DNA of 44,246 bases from Escherichia phage K1E. The stretch lies in the sequence record KY435490; one strand, given 5' to 3'. The position numbers were made by a program, and so were the translations under genes. Below the pieces are notes generated by a model. The model saw only the letters and a list, made by a program, of their open reading frames with translations, was not told the origin of the DNA and searched no databases. This document shows positions 3,803 through 44,246 of the stretch, in pieces. How positions within the stretch are numbered: the stretch's first letter is position 1; the number at the start of each line of letters is the position of its first letter.

Positions 3803-3820
3803 CTATAGTGTCCGGTAATT
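3803..3820 (-). promoter_or_regulatory. Phage RNAP promoter (AATTACCGGACACTATAG)
   Basis: Consensus match directly downstream of the terminase large subunit gene. Confidence 0.65.
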
Positions 3821-5717
3821 AATAAGTCCTTGAAATCCTTGCAGAAAGTGTATTTCTGCTTGCCGATTTACTCCTGTAATTCTGACCGTATACTCTTTGC
3901 TGCATAGCCACGGAAGTGTTGGTTACTCTTCGCTCAGTGCCATAATCTCCATAGAGCATTGCCCTACGGAGGTGAGGTGTGTTCATAGCATGGATGTAAT
4001 CGCGCATCTCCTGCGCTCTGAGGCGATTAATCCGTGTAACCTCGTCATAGTCTATCTGAGAAGTTAATTGCCGTATAGCGCCATACAGAGCGTCTAAGCG
4101 GTCATCGTGTCGTAGGCTGTTCTTCTCAATCGTGATGTTCGACATTTGATTGAAAAGGCTGTATGACATGCGTAGTTCAAGCGGATAGTGCTGTACCGAC
4201 TCAAAATCAGACTTGACCATCTCTGCGTTGAAGATGAGCCTGTGGGCCGCCATTAGTGGCTCTAGTGTTTCAATGATACGCAACTCTTTCTGTCCGGTGG
4301 CGTAATCTTCCTCCAGAACCACAGGCCACTCTCGTTCAAAGTATGGCTTTATAACGGCCTCAAACGCGCCATGACCAAAGTTCTTTTCAATGAATACCTC
4401 TTTAACACCTGCCTGCTTTGCGGCCTGCACAATGCGATTCAGGGACGATTCGCGGTATCCTCCCGGCACACCAAAGCACTGATACACATAAATGAATGTG
4501 CCGTGCAGGAAGACGATAGCCACACCCGTTTCATCCCCGTTCTTACCGCCACCCGCAGGGTCAATATACATAATCTTACGGGTAACAGCACCCCATTCAT
4601 AAGGACGGGCTACAGGTCTATACATAAAGTCTGTAGGCTTGTTACCATACTTAGGGGCATCGCCAATGATATTAATAGAATCATTACTCCACGTAGGCAT
4701 CACAGGGACTTCCTCTGTACCGAACGAAGTAAAGATTAGATTGTTTAGACGAAGTGGGTATCTGTCAGCATCCATCATGCGAGTGTTCAGCATAAACTGA
4801 AGCTGGAACTTAGCAGCACCTTGAGAGATTTCCTTCTCAATCAACACGTCATCATCGTACATTTCAGGTGCGCAAGGTGCACCACTGTTACCGTCTAACC
4901 CATAACCAGAGCGAAGTGCTGGGTTGTCTTTCATATCCTGCACAATCATAGGTGCAAGGAAGTCACCATAGCATTGCTCCTGCTCTACTGATGGATAACG
5001 TGCAGTCCAGATACGAACCGAGTAACCACGAGCAGGTAAGTTGTTGTAGATAGAGTTTACGTTCTGAGGAGTACCAAGGTAGATGATATCACCAAACTGG
5101 TTGATAGATTCAAACTCCTTGGTCAACTCCTCAAGCAAGGCACGGCCTGCTGCTGTACGAGCATTCTGCATCGATTCTACGTCATCTGCTAGAATAATAT
5201 CAGCACGAGCACCCTGCATACCTGCTTCGATAGAGTAACAGGATACAGAAGGTGACTTATCGCTGCCGCGTAACGTGTAGTGAATCTCAAATGCTTTGAC
5301 TGATGCACGGTCGCCAGCGTATATGTCCGGTAGCATAAACTCAAGGAAGTCTAGGCCACGGAAGATTTTCACTACCCAACCTGCGATTTCCTCTGCTCGC
5401 TTGGCGTTTTGGGATACTACCATGATACGCTTATGGGGTTCATGGATGATACGGAAAACAGTATAGATTGCTGATAGTGTAGTTTTAGCGATACCACGGG
5501 GCGCTTCGATGAGGCGATATTTATGTCCATAGAATAGAAACTTTAAAATATCGGCCTGCATACGAATCAGATGAGGGTTGCCTGCAATCAAGTTATGGAT
5601 AACTGTATCTGCAAAGAGAAGCAAACCTTCCGCCGTATACGGAAAAGTTTGCTGTAACTCCTGTAGCATCTCCCATCTGGCAAGAGCCTCCGCTTGTGAT
5701 TCTCTTGCCTTAGCCAT
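3819..5717 (-). CDS. Terminase large subunit (T7 gp19-like)
   Basis: 632 aa; ATG at 5717 after GGAGG, overlapping the upstream stop (TGATG); ATPase plus nuclease architecture. Confidence 0.93.
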   Translation of the reverse strand: MAKARESQAEALARWEMLQELQQTFPYTAEGLLLFADTVIHNLIAGNPHLIRMQADILKFLFYGHKYRLIEAPRGIAKTTLSAIYTVFRIIHEPHKRIMVVSQNAKRAEEIAGWVVKIFRGLDFLEFMLPDIYAGDRASVKAFEIHYTLRGSDKSPSVSCYSIEAGMQGARADIILADDVESMQNARTAAGRALLEELTKEFESINQFGDIIYLGTPQNVNSIYNNLPARGYSVRIWTARYPSVEQEQCYGDFLAPMIVQDMKDNPALRSGYGLDGNSGAPCAPEMYDDDVLIEKEISQGAAKFQLQFMLNTRMMDADRYPLRLNNLIFTSFGTEEVPVMPTWSNDSINIIGDAPKYGNKPTDFMYRPVARPYEWGAVTRKIMYIDPAGGGKNGDETGVAIVFLHGTFIYVYQCFGVPGGYRESSLNRIVQAAKQAGVKEVFIEKNFGHGAFEAVIKPYFEREWPVVLEEDYATGQKELRIIETLEPLMAAHRLIFNAEMVKSDFESVQHYPLELRMSYSLFNQMSNITIEKNSLRHDDRLDALYGAIRQLTSQIDYDEVTRINRLRAQEMRDYIHAMNTPHLRRAMLYGDYGTERRVTNTSVAMQQRVYGQNYRSKSASRNTLSARISRTY

Positions 5718-6016
5718 CAATCCTCCTTAGTAAATTGAATAATCTTACCACTGGATGCCTCTCGGATAGCCTTGAGGCGCTTAGATAACTTGGATTCTTC
5801 CTGCTGTGCAGCAGGTGTAGCAGTGATGCCATTATCCAGTACCCACTTACACATAGCACCAATGTCTTTACCAGAGACTAAATGCAGTGCTGCATCTGGG
5901 TCTTCTTCTATAGTGTCCAGTATTGCCTGTGCTTTCTTATTAAAGATTTTGGTAATAGCACCATGCAGGATGCCAACTTCATCCTCTGTAGCTGCATGTT
6001 TATTGTGTACGCTCAT
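5717..6016 (-). CDS. Terminase small subunit candidate (T7 gp18 position)
   Basis: 99 aa, immediately upstream of and overlapping the terminase large subunit; GGGAGG RBS. Confidence 0.6.
   Translation of the reverse strand: MSVHNKHAATEDEVGILHGAITKIFNKKAQAILDTIEEDPDAALHLVSGKDIGAMCKWVLDNGITATPAAQQEESKLSKRLKAIREASSGKIIQFTKED
5908..5925 (-). promoter_or_regulatory. Promoter-like sequence (CAATACTGGACACTATAG) inside the terminase small subunit gene
   Basis: Core -13..+1 identical to consensus; -17..-15 divergent. Confidence 0.35.
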
Positions 6017-10942: not shown

Positions 10943-10960
10943 TGTCTCACATGTGAGACA
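10943..10960. repeat. Palindrome TGTCTCACATGTGAGACA (copy 1)
   Basis: Perfect 18-bp inverted repeat, intergenic. Confidence 0.6.
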
Positions 10961-35716: not shown

Positions 35717-35747
35717 GGTTAAAATCTCCAAAGTGAGTTAGTCTTAT

Positions 35748-35765
35748 CTATACTGTCCGGTAAAT
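35748..35765 (-). promoter_or_regulatory. Phage RNAP promoter (ATTTACCGGACAGTATAG), one mismatch
   Basis: Second of two tandem promoters after the RNAP gene. Confidence 0.6.
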
Positions 35766-35770
35766 ACGAA

Positions 35771-35786
35771 GTCTCACATGTGAGAC
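35771..35786. repeat. Palindrome GTCTCACATGTGAGAC (copy 5)
   Basis: Abuts the upstream edge of promoter 35748..35765. Confidence 0.6.
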
Positions 35787-35941
35787 AACCTAGGTCTGCC
35801 CTTCCTCTAAGTGGTAATAAGAGGAAGGAAGAAGGTAATAGGTATTCCTAGGTATTCCTAGATAACCTATATAACCTTTAATACCTATTACTTCCTTTAT
35901 ATCCTTTATCTTCCCTTTCTTTCCCGTCTCCGACGGCTATC

Positions 35942-35959
35942 CTATAGTGTCCGGTAAAT
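35942..35959 (-). promoter_or_regulatory. Phage RNAP promoter (ATTTACCGGACACTATAG)
   Basis: Exact consensus; first promoter after the RNAP gene. Confidence 0.7.
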
Positions 35960-35961
35960 AA

Positions 35962-35977
35962 GTCTCACATGTGAGAC
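35962..35977. repeat. Palindrome GTCTCACATGTGAGAC (copy 6)
   Basis: Abuts the upstream edge of promoter 35942..35959. Confidence 0.6.
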
Positions 35978-36010
35978 ACTTTTATGTTAATTAAATGTTA
36001 CAGGTAGTAG

Positions 36011-36044
36011 GTAAAGAAAAAGGCCACTCCCTAAGGAATGGCCT
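36011..36044 (-). terminator. Intrinsic terminator after the RNAP gene
   Basis: Coding-strand AGGCCATTCC-ttag-GGAGTGGCCT followed by TTTTTCTTTAC. Confidence 0.6.
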
Positions 36045-36051
36045 ATTAATA

Positions 36052-38679
36052 TTATGCGAAACAATAGTCTGAAACTAAGATTTCGTTAAGGTCAAACTCT
36101 CCTTGCTCTGGTACTTGGATTCCGGTGTCTACTAACCAACGCTCTTCGTGCACATCTAGCAGGTTTTGCAGGGCATTATGGTTTTGATACATCTTAACCA
36201 TTTCTTCCCTTAAGCTATCCCGCAGGTCTGCGGTACGTCCTGCATGAGTACCGAAAGAATCATGGATGACTGCAATGGATGTAATACCTTTATCCACTAG
36301 GTCACATACAGTCAGAATCAGGTGGCTAGCATCGTGACCATGGACGAAGTTAGGAGCAGCCGCACCCATCATTGCCGTTTCATCAACTACATCTGTTTCA
36401 ATCTGGAGACTCATCTTGATTTCACCCATCAAGCAAGTGGATACGCGGAGCATATCGGTAGCCATTATCTTTTGTTGCAAGATGAAGCCAGTTGGTAAGG
36501 GATATTCTAAGCCTTCGTTTCTTTTAGCTGCGAAACGTGCAAGCTGACGAATCATTTTCATTGCCACTATAGGAGCTTTAACCACTTCCGAAATAGAAGG
36601 CCAGATTAAAGCTGTCATATAGTTATAAGCTGCGCTAGGTGTCAGGCTATCTTTGCGGTCATTATCAAAAGGATGTACAGGATTGGCGGTACGCCCTTCC
36701 GCAATAGCCCGTTGGGCCTCTTTTTCTTCCAAATCAACGATATAATCAATCACTGACTCACGGCAGGTTAGACGTGTGCTGCCGTAAGGTAGTGTCATTA
36801 CGGGCTTTTTGGTCAGGCCGCGAGTGATTCCTATCATATCCCACGCACTAGCCATGCTACGCAGTTCCGCACCTGTTAAAGTCACGCTGCCAGAAGTGAA
36901 GGTTTCCGCATCCTCTGCATTCATGTATGCATAATTCTTCTGAATTACTACCTGCGCAACGGCACCATAAATATCTTGAGGGGAGTCAGAGGGCTTAAGG
37001 TTTACCGCTTTCGCACCTACTGCATCGCGTAGCATAGCACTGTAGTGCTGGATACCAGAACAACTACCATCTTGATGGACTGGGAGGTGCGTCATGAATT
37101 GGTCTTGCGTGCCTTCATCCAGTGCATCCAGATAACGCGCATATTCAAAGCACCATGCAAGGAAGCCGTAAGGGGAGTCGGCATTTACCCATTGAGTGAA
37201 GGTCAGCGGATCCGCTGCAATGTCGCGGCACATGTCTTGAAATTCACTATCCAGCACGTTAGCGGTGCGCACGTCAAAAGTTTTCTTATCCCAACCCCAG
37301 TTATTAGCCCCGTTCACCAAAAACCACTTAAGCGCCTCAGCGCTATCAAGACGCTGCCCTTCGGTAAAACGGAGCAATGCCTTGCCTAAGTCGTTTGATT
37401 GCGGAGAGAGCGTGCTAGATTGCGCGTAGACGCGGCTGCGGCTGTCCAGAGCATACACGAAGTATATTGCGTCAAATTGGCTGTATTTACGGGCCTGCCC
37501 TACCATGCGGACGGTCGCCGCCGATTTGCTGCCGCGCTTAGTCTCAGCGGTATACAGCTTGGTGCATTCACCTTTCCAGTTGATGAAGGCTTGCCATTGT
37601 TCCGGTGTTAACATTTCTTTCAGTTCACGGCCTCGCAGGTGCTGGAACTCTAACGGCACCGGATTAGCTGGCTTGTTCTCGCGGTCGATGAGTGGTTTGA
37701 AGGAAGGTACGCCATAGCCTAAATCAAGCCGTATTACGTCCTCAACAACCTGTAAAACTTCCTTGTTAACCTGCCATTTAGTCGCCTGCAAAGCGTTAAC
37801 AGCCTTGTAAACCGCTGGCATTTGCTTTTTGGTCAGCTTGCGGACGTGTTCACGGCTGCCTTTAACAAGACGCACACGACTTGCTACCTTCTCAGTGTGA
37901 AAACCGCCATTAAAAGGAGAAACCCACGGACGCGGAGGTATAACGCAAGGTGCATAAGCCGGGCTAAGTTGCGCTACATGTTCTTTAAATGCTGTAATCC
38001 ATTCCCCTACGTGTTCACTGGTCTGTAAGTAGTAAACGCCATGCTTGCCACCATTAGTGCGCAAGGTGCGAAGAAAGACAGGCTGACCATTGAAGAATAC
38101 ACTATTTTCCAGTATTTCTAGCAAGGTCATACCGATTTGTAGCAAGGTATCTTTAGGCCATGCCTCCCAACGGGAGAAATCCGCGTCACGGTCAGCAACA
38201 GATTTCTCAGCTACTACCGCTACGTTGTGCGCATGACGATAAGATTTAGTCTTGCTAGCCTTAAGCGACTTCTTCACTTTCTCAAAGTACTTAGCTGCGT
38301 GACCTTCCAGCTTGCTAAAACGTACTTGGTCTTCGATGCGGTCCGCTACATTCATAGCGATTGCTTGTAAGGTAACGTCTGTATTCAGCATATCCATAAC
38401 GATTTTCATCGTGATATATGCTGCCACTTCGTTTTCTACGCAGTTAATGAAAGCTAATGCACGCGGTGCACGACCTCTTTTACCTTCATACTCTTCCTTG
38501 TATGCCTGAATACCTTCAGCCATTGGCGCGATTAACTCGGACAATAAGCGGCGATTCCATGCCGTGTCTGATTCATTACCGGATGCAATCTGGCGTTGTT
38601 GGTCCGCTTCAAAGCGACGGATACCGCCGTTAAACATTTCTTCTTCAAGTTGAAGTTGAATAGCGTGTAGGTCTTGCAT
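36052..38679 (-). CDS. DNA-directed RNA polymerase, single-subunit, SP6-type
   Basis: 875 aa; [32 protein letters not shown]... closely resembles SP6 RNAP; motifs [40 protein letters not shown]; C-terminus ...DYCFA. Confidence 0.97.
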
Positions 38680-41746: not shown

Positions 41747-41960
41747 GATTAGCACCCTCTTTAAGAACTTTGATAATGCGGTTATATGCAGTACCTGTAA
41801 TAACTAACTTCTTACCCATCTTAAGATCAATATAGTGCAGATACTTAGGCGAATAATCATAGTTATCTGGTGTGCGCATCTTACATAAGTCATAACCTTT
41901 ATCGAGGAAGTGCTGAATCTCATCAACTGGCATGTTGTACGCTTTTACTTGTACTTTCAT
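41733..41960 (-). CDS. Hypothetical early protein (75 aa), first gene after the terminal region
   Basis: ATG at 41960 after GAGGGA. Confidence 0.45.
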   Translation of the reverse strand: MKVQVKAYNMPVDEIQHFLDKGYDLCKMRTPDNYDYSPKYLHYIDLKMGKKLVITGTAYNRIIKVLKEGANHDIK

Positions 41961-42183
41961 AGTTAATCCCTCATTCAATAAGTAATTAACCACGGCATAC
42001 ACAGGTTACACTAAGCAAATTGTTAAAGAGCATTGCGCTAACCTTGGTTTATCGTGGTAGGTTATGCTTGCGCCATCTTCCACTATCTAACATTGTTTAA
42101 CGGCTTCAGTAGCTAGGCCGGATAGTTAAGGACGCTCTCTATCATTCACCCTGAGTGTTTAATGTCGCTCCCGACTGATTGCT

Positions 42184-42212
42184 AATGTATACCTGTTAAC
42201 TGCCTATGTCAA
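42184..42212 (-). promoter_or_regulatory. Candidate host sigma70 early promoter (TTGACA-N17-TACATT)
   Basis: Perfect -35 hexamer and 17-nt spacer on the coding strand, about 220 nt upstream of the first early gene. Confidence 0.4.
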
Positions 42213-42259
42213 CACTAAATTTAACTAAGATAGATTATTTATGTGATACATGTCACAAC

Positions 42260-43095
42260 TACTAAGATAAACCTAGGTTGTCTAACATGTGAGACTAAGG
42301 AAAGCAATAGATACAGAGCTAGGATAGACTAGGTTGGCTAGGTTTCTGGTGTTCCTCCTACTGCATCTTATTACTATTACTTCTTATTAGCGGTCTACCG
42401 ACCGCGACCTAATTGCATCTTATAGCTTTAGCTATGCAATCACTAAGATCTGGCACTAAGACTAACTAAGGTACACTACTAAGTTGATACTAAGCTAAGC
42501 ACTAAGGCTTTAACTAAGGTAGCCCACTAAGGCTAACCTAAGCCATCCATCAAGGAATAACCTAAGGTACACAAGCGCGGTGAGTGTAGCGTAACGTAGT
42601 GGAGCGAAACGAACAGATAGCCCACCCACGCCCACCCTGTCAAACGCTCAGGAATGGCCCTAAAACGGCCTGTGTAAGCCCTAAGCGGTTGCACTAAGGC
42701 AATCACCTTGTCCAATACTAAGGCGTGCCCTAGCGCTTCCTAGGCGTTCTCCTTGTGCAGCCACTAAGAGCAGACCTCGGCAAGCCCTAGGCCACCCGTC
42801 GAAGACGGACCAGCCCAGCCCAATTCCCAAGCCAACCGCAGCGCGGCCCCATATGGGGGAAATCCGGCGAGGGCGAGGGCGAGACACCTCACACACGCCT
42901 ATATCAAAATTTTGACTTTGGTTACTTTGTGAGCGACCTCCGTATCTTCTCGTCCCTTATTTGGTCTTCACTAAGAATGTACCTCTTACGACCTAGGACA
43001 TCACTGAGTATACACAACAAAGATAACATACCTACACCCTCCTTTGATGGCACTAAGAGCAAACCTAGGTCTGCCCTTGTGTACACTAAGATATT
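42260..43095. repeat. Terminal-region repeat arrays of (C)ACTAAG(G)/CCTAAGG short motifs flanking a GC-rich island
   Basis: About 17 copies of ACTAAG in a noncoding stretch; analogous to T7 CCTAAAG arrays beside the terminal repeat. Confidence 0.5.
42280..42295. repeat. Palindrome-like GTCTAACATGTGAGAC (copy 7, one mismatch)
   Basis: In the terminal noncoding region; its flank is an inverted copy of the copy-5 flank. Confidence 0.45.
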
Positions 43096-43102
43096 AACCT
43101 GC

Positions 43103-43252
43103 TTAAGCAGAAGATGCAGAAGGTTTCTTCAAGGCACGACGTTGTACATCCTTGGCAATGGCGTATGCCTGCTTAGGGTCACGTCCTGATTGAATAAGTT
43201 CTTCTGCGTTCTGGCGTACAGCAGCTTGCTTAACTGATTTTATTAGTGGCAT
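43103..43252 (-). CDS. Possible small basic protein (49 aa) overlapping the last 23 nt of the endosialidase gene
   Basis: ATG 4 nt after GAGGAG; MPLIKSVKQAAVRQNAEELIQSGRDPKQAYAIAKDVQRRALKKPSASSA; below the ORF-track size cutoff. Confidence 0.2.
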   Translation of the reverse strand: MPLIKSVKQAAVRQNAEELIQSGRDPKQAYAIAKDVQRRALKKPSASSA

Positions 43253-44246
43253 ACATCTCCTCTAATTTATCAAGACGATGGCGAGTATAGGCAGCCTCTA
43301 GGATTAGAACTTCACTATATCTCACACCGTACCTACCTTCTTCGAAGGACACAATTCCATACTTAATGGCATCTAACCCTTCATCTTCAAAAGCAGCTAC
43401 AATATCCTGAGCCAAGACACCGAAGTGTATGCTATCAAGGTTCCTCTCTGCTTCACTATTCAAACCATACTGTTTAAAACCAACCCTGCTCCAAGCCTTT
43501 AACACCTTGGTATTAATACTAGAGATACCGTACTTGTGGTCAGCATCTGAAGTTGTAACAGGGTCACTGCCTAGGTAGATGGTAGTGAATCGGTTACTAG
43601 GCCCCCCAGCAGCAAACTGGTTATCTACAGCAGGCATGATTGGTGCACCTTGGAATAGGTGCTCATTTCCGTTATAAGTGATACGCTTAGCCTTACTTGA
43701 ATTAGAGCCGTGCAAAGTTATCTGTGCACCTGAAGAGGACGAAGTCTTTTCTCCACCACAAATAATCAAACGTTGACCAGTTGGGTTGTCCTTTGGAACA
43801 GACTTACCAATAAAGCCATATTCACCTTCCATCTGCACTTCAGATCGTATATTGGAACTTGTGCTTGCTTTAAGTGTTAAGTGTCCAACTTTAGTATCCT
43901 CTGTAACAATGTTATCTGAGAAATACAAAGGTGCAGAGATATTTCGTATTCCATCAGTACCCATGAAAGTAGGTATAGCTTGACCCGGAGTTGCACCATA
44001 TGTAAACTTACGAGATACACGATTGTCATTTGCAATCTGCATCTTATAGCAGTATATATCAGTAGGGTGTCCATGACCTTTAAATGGGTCTTTATCTTTG
44101 TTGTCACCATAAGTCATTGGGTTGAAATGGTTTTCACCACCAAAGATATAGTAAATGTAGCTGTCTTTAACTACAACAGAACCTACACCTACACTAGAGT
44201 TCACAATGTCACCTTGATAGATTTGGTCTGTGATGTTAACCCATTC
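43230..44246 (-). CDS. Endosialidase tailspike, C-terminal part (same gene as 1..1651; 44015..44246 duplicates 1..232)
   Basis: Track ORF 43230..44204 is open up to the window end; frame matches the N-terminal segment after removing the 232-bp duplication. Confidence 0.88.
   Translation of the reverse strand, partial: EWVNITDQIYQGDIVNSSVGVGSVVVKDSYIYYIFGGENHFNPMTYGDNKDKDPFKGHGHPTDIYCYKMQIANDNRVSRKFTYGATPGQAIPTFMGTDGIRNISAPLYFSDNIVTEDTKVGHLTLKASTSSNIRSEVQMEGEYGFIGKSVPKDNPTGQRLIICGGEKTSSSSGAQITLHGSNSSKAKRITYNGNEHLFQGAPIMPAVDNQFAAGGPSNRFTTIYLGSDPVTTSDADHKYGISSINTKVLKAWSRVGFKQYGLNSEAERNLDSIHFGVLAQDIVAAFEDEGLDAIKYGIVSFEEGRYGVRYSEVLILEAAYTRHRLDKLEEMYATNKIS

Follow-up and report, generated by a model that had tools for sequence, protein, structure and literature searches.

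The window analysed here, namely the whole 44,246-nucleotide stretch of record KY435490, has an exact direct repeat at its two ends (positions 1-232 and 44015-44246), and because these ends overlap by 232 bp, the record amounts to a single, circularly closed unit of 44,014 bp. All of the long open reading frames (ORFs) and all of the phage promoters are found on the minus strand, and to read the genes in their natural orientation, the window must be reverse-complemented. Among the encoded proteins are TerL (3819-5720) and TerS (5717-6016) of a T7-type terminase and a single-subunit RNA polymerase (36052-38679), identified by PHROG matches with E = 1.9e-241, 1e-25, and 1.6e-290, respectively. 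The window, with a genome GC content of 0.449, is one circularly assembled genome unit of a Vectrevirus (Autographiviridae, Molineuxvirinae) of the K1E, K1-5, and SP6 kind. Over 1.4 kb, the junction region described below shares 98.5% identity with Vectrevirus T145P2 and 87-96% identity with many K1-specific phages, K1E among them.

The locus itself is a gap of 1.14 kb (41963-43102), which the original prediction had described as a 1.2-kb noncoding stretch lying directly after the endosialidase stop. The gap is real, though it is closer to 1.1 kb in length and not strictly noncoding, as it contains a possible 35-aa ORF (42922-43029, minus strand) with a strong ribosome-binding site (AAAGGAGG). 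This ORF is found at the position of K1-5 gene 49 and SP6 gp52, its sequence is not conserved, and it returned no match in PHROG. Nor does the gap adjoin the endosialidase, whose ORF runs to 43230. Next comes a conserved gene of 49 aa (43103-43252, minus strand), the homologue of K1-5 gene 48 (PHROG 2423, E = 1.4e-22), which bounds the gap on the late-gene side, and for this reason the gap starts at 43102.

Toward the other end of the gap, two candidate sigma-70-like promoters, recognized by consensus match only, face the early genes on the minus strand, these being GTGACA-18-TATCTT (42256-42227) and TTGACA-17-TACATT (42212-42184). Matches in the sigma-70 scan were no more numerous than in shuffled sequence; the block that holds this pair (42184-42256) is conserved in sequence in K1E and SP6, and by analogy with the A1-A3 promoters of T7 (T7 annotation), the two may function as early promoters. 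A further, strongly conserved noncoding block (42340-42436, minus strand), which is 80-94% identical to K1E, K1-5, and SP6, includes a GC hairpin (GCGGTC-TACC-GACCGC, 42390-42405), and TGCATCTTAT occurs in it twice (42362-42371 and 42414-42423). An Rfam scan of 41800-43400 gave no match at E <= 1, and a simple terminator scan gave one weak match, located inside the terminal repeat described below and no more than was obtained in shuffled sequence.

Direct terminal repeat and genome ends

Within the gap, a GC-rich island had been marked at about 42560-42900, and the GC content there is indeed 0.598, as against 0.449 for the genome. For comparison with the termini of related phages, exact terminal repeats were computed from both fetched record ends of K1E (288 bp), K1-5 (234 bp), SP6 (174 bp), T7 (160 bp), and KAW1A4500 (267 bp), and the terminal repeats of mutPK1A2 (286 bp) and phD2B (262 bp) were those of the records' own annotations. 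In the alignment, position 1 of K1E falls on window position 42884 and the last K1E base on 42618. KAW1A4500, which is 98.8% identical over the junction, has an exact 267-bp direct terminal repeat (DTR) with the same boundaries (given as 266 bp in the paper on this phage; PMC6563267). Moreover, a sensitive search for which the junction (window positions 42960-42540, read downward) served as query revealed records that start at the base matching 42884 or 42883 (K1E, KAW1A4500, fTuEco01, and mutPK1A2) and records that end at the base matching 42618 (K1-5, EC120, AAPEc6, VEc3, and Raoultella phage P3a).

As the repeat boundaries of the relatives align to 42884 and 42618, we predict a DTR of 267 bp at 42618-42884 (minus strand), present as a single copy in the assembly, as it would be in a concatemer junction. 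Homology thus supports the proposal that the concatemer junction and the true termini are located here. GC content over these 267 bp is 0.614 and both flanks are at ~0.43, and on this comparison, the GC-rich island is the predicted DTR itself. The left genome end would be at 42884, where the minus strand starts with TCTCGCCC... (in longer form, 5'-TCTCGCCCTCGCC...), and the right genome end at 42618, where the same strand finishes with ...GGGCTA (in longer form, ...GTGGGCTA). The stretch GGGCGAGGGCGAG, which had been quoted as an example of the island, is the reverse complement of this extreme left end (TCTCGCCCTCGCCCTCGCC). Virion DNA is predicted to be linear and ~44,281 bp long, and to run from 42884 down the minus strand to a second repeat copy that ends at 42618.

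For the SP6 relative UAB_Phi78, the ends have been mapped by Bal31 digestion and run-off sequencing (PMC4837284), and these are ~15 and ~10 nt off the boundaries in the SP6 record, with deposited ends also varying by 1-2 nt (K1-5, mutPK1A2, and phD2B). In view of these offsets, our positions are to be read as accurate within about 15 nt, and to that precision it is highly likely, from the sequence comparisons, that the repeat and ends are located as given. Here, the physical ends of this isolate would be placed by homology with phages whose own ends were reportedly determined on virion DNA, in SP6 by Dobbins in 2004, in K1-5 by Scholl in 2004, and in K1E by Stummeyer in 2006. A DTR and concatemer junction at this location are already known biology, with a known layout, for SP6/K1E-like phages. 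In fact, the DTRs of K1E, KAW1A4500, mutPK1A2, K1-5, SP6, UAB_Phi78, and phD2B (Molineuxvirinae) are homologous in sequence and have the same boundary strings as the window (TCTC... at the left and ...GGCTA/TCTGTT at the right, with the slash marking the boundary), and the box outside the left cut, the early-promoter block, and the terminase type are shared as well. Only the length and interior of the repeat differ (267 bp here versus 174-288 bp in this group), along with the variable small ORF at the right end and the circularly permuted, repeat-collapsed form of the window record.

Terminal repeats of this kind are often deleted from short-read assemblies or misplaced into the middle of a contig (PMC10438801), and this habit of collapsing or misplacing them accounts for the single internal copy in the window. 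For annotation purposes, base 42884 of the minus strand should be made the start of a re-oriented contig, the 267-bp repeat appended at the right end to give ~44,281 bp, and the 232-bp assembly overlap dropped. Moreover, ORFs called within the terminal repeat, as in some relatives, are to be treated as doubtful.

Other readings of the region were weighed against a fixed terminal repeat at 42618-42884. Headful packaging with circular permutation, in which there would be no fixed ends and the region would be a mere regulatory gap between late and early genes, is in keeping with the self-closure of the contig by its 232-bp overlap, since a permuted genome would also give this. Nonetheless, we regard it as highly unlikely, given that the terminase is of the T7/SP6 type, that all close relatives deposited as linear records have exact short DTRs at these very boundaries, that an SP6 relative has discrete Bal31-sensitive ends (PMC4837284), and that assemblers routinely collapse such repeats (PMC10438801). 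That the 232-bp overlap of the contig ends is itself the real terminal repeat is scarcely credible, even if the record ends repeat one another exactly and directly over a length similar to those of known DTRs. This segment lies inside the endosialidase coding sequence, is without any conserved boundary motif, and corresponds to none of the terminal repeats of the relatives, all of which map to 42618-42884, and it was rejected as a DTR for being coding and for having no homologous repeat in the relatives. Very improbable too is a GC-rich island that represents a foreign insert or a protein-coding gene. A gene is annotated there in K1E (gp48) and KAW1A4500 (gene 00058), in both of which the annotated CDSs overlap the DTR, and the window has a 71-aa ORF at 42681-42896. 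Against a gene, this ORF has no PHROG match, the offset of the ORF start from the DTR is not the same in K1E as in the window, and the relatives carry a copy of the segment at each end of the genome. K1E also has a 22-nt insertion, which is not a multiple of three, and there are large deletions in K1-5 and SP6. The 71-aa ORF was accordingly rejected as a gene on account of these frame-breaking indels and the lack of a family match.

Boundary sequences and processing of the junction

The junctions of the window, KAW1A4500, K1E, K1-5, and SP6 were reconstructed and aligned in gene orientation. This gave two sharp conservation peaks at the DTR boundaries (69-97%), which are the best-conserved noncoding blocks, with a variable and indel-rich repeat interior between them (identity down to 31% in SP6). 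Identity to K1E, K1-5, and SP6 is 81-92% for the 48 nt outside the left cut, 80-97% for the first 40 nt of the repeat, and 69-84% for its last 32 nt. Just outside the DTR, toward the right-end side, a conserved box (42885-42932, minus strand) reads CACAAAGTAACCAAAGTCAAAATTTTGATATAGGCGTGTGTGAGGTG, with the cut then placed before TCTC, and this is the part of the junction for which the search still found matches in Proteus, Klebsiella, and Lelliottia phages. We consider this box to be a candidate recognition sequence for the left-end cut. The first 40 nt of the genome (42845-42884, minus strand) comprise TCTCGCCCTCGCCCTCGCCGG followed by the palindrome CCCCCATATGGGG (42847-42859, minus strand), which occupies genome positions 26-38. 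At the left boundary, the string ...GGCGTGTGT(N6)/TCTCGCC is common to K1E, K1-5, and SP6 (the string shared among relatives can also be given as ...TTTTGATATAGGCGTGTGT.../TCTC...), and at the right boundary, so is ...GGGCTA/TCTGTTCG, of which the relatives have ...GGGCTA/TCTGTTC in common. Both boundary strings are partly found in phD2B and T7.

T7, with a repeat of 160 bp, has no general nucleotide homology to the window, whose repeat is 61% GC. However, its short DTR likewise starts with TCTC and contains a C-run/ATA/G-run palindrome at positions 26-38 (CCCCCATAGGGGG), and ATCTGTT is found at no more than 1 nt from the right repeat boundary, which in T7 reads CCCT/ATCTGTTAC. In SP6, K1-5, and phD2B, CCCCATAGGG is located within 3 nt of the palindrome offset seen in T7 and the window. 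As the TCTC start, the palindrome at 26-38, and the ATCTGTT at the repeat boundary are kept across the T7 and SP6 subfamilies, and this despite almost no nucleotide homology elsewhere, these three features are probably core packaging signals.

The class II signal of T7 RNA polymerase is ATCTGTT following A, C, or T, and the motif marks the T7 concatemer junction (bioRxiv 10.1101/2021.01.11.426313; PMC11617373; bioRxiv 10.64898/2026.02.12.705533; for the junction, also PMC3276506). The paused T7 polymerase is reported, as related in PMC3276506 with reference to Zhang and Studier (2004), to interact with gp18 and gp19 and so start DNA maturation. In the window, a class II pause/termination signal (TATCTGTT, 42612-42619, minus strand) is located exactly at the right DTR boundary, as the equivalent of the T7 CJ site. 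Sense-strand ATCTGTT occurs only twice in the window, at this boundary and inside the RNA polymerase gene, and once each in SP6, K1-5, and phD2B, and in all four genomes the A of the boundary copy is the last DTR base. By analogy, the copy in the RNA polymerase gene would sit in the host-transcribed early region. Moreover, the shorter ATCTGT is found three times on the sense strand of the window as opposed to 17 times on the antisense strand, a skew that fits with the signal being avoided in transcripts of the phage polymerase. By likeness to T7, the phage polymerase may pause at ATCTGTT in this phage as well.

We consider it very likely that the window is a K1E/K1-5-like unit in which 42618-42884 is the single DTR copy at a concatemer junction, for which processing of the T7 kind is proposed. 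By homology with T7, replication would give rise to head-to-tail concatemers having one repeat per junction. The phage RNA polymerase, arriving from the late genes, would cross the repeat and pause at its far edge, on the class II signal (42619-42612), whereupon the T7-type terminase would be recruited to cut at both conserved boundaries, in an order that we infer. DNA synthesis would then duplicate the repeat, leaving a copy at either end of every packaged genome. When phage promoters were sought with a PWM derived from 10 promoters of this genome, no phiOL/phiOR-like promoter was found in 41963-43300 (best score 4.8, as compared with 20-39 for the 13 top-scoring phage-promoter sites), and a search of the junction with up to 3 mismatches also found none. 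As there is no phage promoter in or near the junction, with the nearest one upstream ~3.3 kb away, the transcription-coupled step is less certain. In other respects, the window falls within the T7/SP6-type DTR class, as it encodes a T7-type TerL and TerS and a single-subunit RNA polymerase, is homologous to the two-ended repeats of the relatives, and has both the conserved cut-site sequences and the class II signal. It departs from the strict T7-style junction anatomy in having no phiOL/phiOR phage promoters flanking the repeat and in the sequence and strand of the motif that takes the place of CCTAAAG.

Short repeats beside the terminal repeat

On the plus strand of the 44,014-bp unit, ACTAAG occurs 29 times, with 18 of these copies falling in the gap 41963-43102, a segment that makes up 2.6% of the genome (binomial p ~7e-22). 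There are also three plus-strand copies of CCTAAG in the gap (42537, 42561, and 42680) and none of CTTAG, for which the plus-strand total is 73 genome-wide. About 17 ACTAAG-type repeats had been counted at first, and this is a fair figure, as 42260-43095 holds 16 ACTAAG and three CCTAAG. Read along the genes, the motif becomes CTTAGT, and its consensus approximates CCTTAGT. A dense array at 42437-42572 (minus strand) is made up of 11 CTTAG cores, of which eight are CTTAGT, two CTTAGG, and one an overlapping CTTAGC. It begins ~50 bp inside the DTR boundary on the gene-1 side, and ten of its cores are phased at 10-13 bp, with one 24-bp gap that spans a degenerate unit. Four further copies are located in the DTR (42680-42768, minus strand; plus-strand ACTAAG/CCTAAG at 42680, 42693, 42717, and 42763), and equivalent copies are present in the DTRs of K1E, K1-5, and SP6. 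Three copies are scattered on the right-end side (42970-43090, minus strand; at 42970, 43052, and 43085), and another three adjoin the sigma-70-like early promoters (42224, 42261, and 42294).

The original prediction of arrays around the island, arranged as in T7, therefore needs qualification. Short repeats do lie beside the direct terminal repeat, but the dense array is confined to the gene-1 side, with only the three scattered copies on the other, and the motif is in the opposite orientation to CCTAAAG of T7, as the gene strand of the window has CTTAGT and it is the other strand that has ACTAAGG. What T7 has in common with the window is a one-strand heptamer array that comes after the left repeat with a phasing of 10-14 bp, additional copies inside the repeat, and E. 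coli-type promoters that follow the array.

The offset of the array is the same in K1E, K1-5, SP6, and UAB_Phi78, though their repeat lengths differ by up to 114 bp. In comparison with SP6, identity is 85.5% in motif columns and 56.8% in spacer columns, and this better conservation of the motif indicates that the motif itself is under selection. Among the SP6-like phages, the CTTAGT array is found at the offset seen in the window in all except phD2B, which has almost no sense-strand CTTAGT and instead has CATGATG at the same place with similar spacing; T7 has its CCTAAAG array at this place too. That the architecture is kept while the motif changes points to a sequence-specific binding partner. 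The simplest idea, in which TerS reads the array, is argued against by a TerS without extra divergence where the motif changes: SP6 and phD2B, whose array motifs differ, have 74.7% TerS identity, as compared with 75.8% between SP6 and the window, and the N-terminal part of TerL is 92.2% identical between SP6 and phD2B. Thus, among SP6, phD2B, and the window, no signal was seen of TerS or TerL divergence that tracks the change in array motif.

We tentatively put forward, as the most likely role, that the CTTAGT array is a protein-binding array that marks this flank of the junction, or else the DNA that enters the cell first. With similar reserve, it may be viewed as a lineage-specific and orientation-specific binding array, the motif of which would have been replaced at least three times within the Autographiviridae (CCTAAAG in T7, CTTAGT in SP6/K1E, and CATGATG in phD2B), with its place immediately inside the left repeat and its ~12-bp phasing kept. 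If so, the replaced motif would itself identify a junction- or entry-specific DNA-binding factor, apparently not simply TerS, given that TerS and the motif do not co-vary. That the array motif differs between lineages gives a route to what the repeats do, and on this view the long-unexplained end repeats of T7 would become testable by an array swap. Our literature searches on the T7 end repeats found nothing useful.

In T7, phiOL and phiOR serve as secondary origins. Rather than marking the junction, the array could represent iterons or binding sites that belong to a replication origin or to early-gene control, with its nearness to the ends incidental, or else could bind a host factor that acts on the first-entering DNA, a possibility that we hold to be rather unlikely. 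Consistent with it are the further motif copies that adjoin the sigma-70-like early promoters (42224, 42261, and 42294), the phiOL and phiOR phage promoters carried by the corresponding end regions of T7 (T7 annotation), and a TerS that does not co-vary with the motif. Moreover, T7 and K1E, both E. coli phages, have similar cores (CCTAAAG and ACTAAGG), and the core of a Lelliottia phage is different. However, the array comes without a phage promoter or a long AT-rich tract, and its offset from the DTR boundary is fixed in all of the relatives over DTR lengths of 174 to 288 bp. Iteron-binding initiators are not known from T7-type replication, and this also counts against iterons. In any event, such a reading concerns only the array, and leaves the termini where they are.

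Repeated palindromes in and outside the gap

Two longer repeats in the gap had been noted along with the short ones. The 17-mer AACCTAGGTCTGCCCTT is, as claimed, exact at both 43062 and 35787. By our own estimate, roughly 0.05-0.1 exact 17-mer repeats would be expected by chance in 44 kb, and with this one having been picked after the fact, its recurrence is only modestly surprising. It is contained in the imperfect palindrome AAGGGCAGACCTAGGTTTGCTCTT (43055-43078), which is flanked by motif copies at 43052 and 43085, and the centre of which is CTTAGG in K1E, K1-5, and SP6, with the SP6 arms differing from those of the window on both sides. The segment 42269-42295, described as an inverted copy of 35771-35797, does match it as the reverse complement at 25 of the 27 bases. 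This 27-mer (plus strand) consists of AACCTAGGTT and a 16-bp palindrome, GTCTAACATGTGAGAC (42280-42295). Neither the 27-mer nor the 17-mer is part of the packaging site; both are instead parts of other repeats, of a hairpin/palindrome family.

The 16-bp palindrome (GTCTCACATGTGAGAC), for which a full-text literature search found no papers, has eight copies in the genome, these being mostly intergenic and in three cases just upstream of phage promoters, with the left-end copy (42280-42295) inverted relative to the others. In SP6, K1-5, and phD2B, 8-9 copies per genome are found at positions that broadly correspond, as judged by coordinate and not by positional alignment, and the half-sites change together. 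G-U-type pairs and complementary flanks favour a sense-strand RNA hairpin. Among 29 distinct copies, the hairpin pairing has more double-sided changes than any of 500 shuffles, and its covariation score is 0.288, as compared with 0.170 for the shuffles and no more than 0.182 with the partner columns slid.

The terminal repeat and its flanks in related phages

Here, we noticed that the array of short CTTAGT repeats at 42437-42572, beside the predicted direct terminal repeat (DTR), has a counterpart in the Lelliottia phage phD2B (L016), in which a CATGATG array spans positions 330-650 and 9 of the 22 sense-strand copies of the motif fall within the first 800 bp. The arrays of phD2B, the SP6/K1E-like phages, and T7 are similar in position and spacing, though the motif at this site differs, being CATGATG in the first, CTTAGT in the second, and CCTAAAG in T7. 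At the left genome end, a palindrome composed of a C-run, ATA(T), and a G-run occupies genome positions 26-38 in both the window phage (42847-42859) and T7 (L005), and deviates from this offset by at most 3 nt in SP6, K1-5, and phD2B. Apart from this palindrome, the T7 and SP6/K1E-like subfamilies share almost no nucleotide similarity.

As for the repeat boundaries, those of UAB_Phi78 (positions 1-200 of L009) were mapped by experiment, and while its sequence aligns with that of SP6, the mapped repeat starts 15 nt and ends 10 nt earlier than in the SP6 record. Either the cut sites are different or one of the two mappings is imprecise. A perfect TTGACA is found 18 nt upstream of the TATCTG that marks the repeat boundary (42623-42646, minus strand), and is conserved among the window, KAW1A4500, K1E, K1-5, SP6, and UAB_Phi78. 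The CJ site of T7 is reported to be able to function as an E. coli promoter (2026 preprint, bioRxiv 10.64898/2026.02.12.705533). Across the whole window, ATCTGT occurs three times on the sense (minus) strand versus 17 times on the antisense strand, with similarly skewed counts in K1-5 (2 versus 19) and phD2B (2 versus 8), SP6 being the exception (6 versus 7). These counts suggest that class II pause signals (ATCTGTT) are selected against in transcripts of the phage polymerase.

A family of 16-bp palindromes

Eight palindromes of 16 nt each (GTCTCACATGTGAGAC and variants) are located at 10944, 27377, 32230, 33402, 34970, 35771, 35962, and 42280, mainly in intergenic positions, and three of them directly adjoin a phage promoter on its upstream side. 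SP6, K1-5, and phD2B carry 8-9 copies per genome at broadly corresponding positions, and their half-sites covary (GTCTAAC..GTTGGAC, GTCCAAC..GTTGGAC). Because of the G-U-type asymmetry and the complementary flanks, the family suggests a conserved RNA hairpin of the sense strand, possibly serving as a processing, stability, or pause element. Our full-text literature search found no paper containing the palindrome sequence.

The primary replication origin of T7 consists of promoters 1.1A and 1.1B together with an AT-rich region. By analogy, the gap that follows the RNA polymerase gene (35723-36051), with its two phage promoters (35959-35940 and 35765-35746), resembles this origin in layout. Each of the two promoters is preceded by a copy of the 16-bp palindrome, and the DNA separating them contains an AT-rich stretch, which carries a tandem AGGTATTCCT repeat, and a hairpin with a 9-bp stem (CCTTCCTCT...AGAGGAAGG).

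Small ORFs, a conserved noncoding block, and the window ends

Just before the terminal repeat, a 35-aa ORF (42922-43029, minus strand) is preceded by a strong ribosome-binding site (AAAGGAGG). Both this site and the start codon align with those of K1-5 gene 49 and SP6 gp52, though the proteins are unrelated in sequence, and the right end of the genome appears to have a variable slot for small genes here. Within the terminal repeat itself are K1E gp48 (1869-2084 of L002), KAW1A4500_00058 (722-937 of L013), and a 71-aa ORF in the window (42681-42896). Their frame and position are not conserved among relatives, and none has a family match; these annotated or callable ORFs are probably spurious.

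A noncoding block at 42340-42436 is highly conserved (80-94% identity to K1E, K1-5, and SP6), and contains a GC hairpin (GCGGTC-TACC-GACCGC, 42390-42405) and two copies of TGCATCTTAT placed 52 bp apart, with no promoter or terminator match in the block to account for its conservation. Lastly, both window ends, which lie within the endosialidase gene, are identical over 232 bp (1-232 and 44015-44246). This overlap is an artefact that arose when the assembly of a terminally redundant genome was closed, and it is not the biological repeat; one genome unit measures 44,014 bp.
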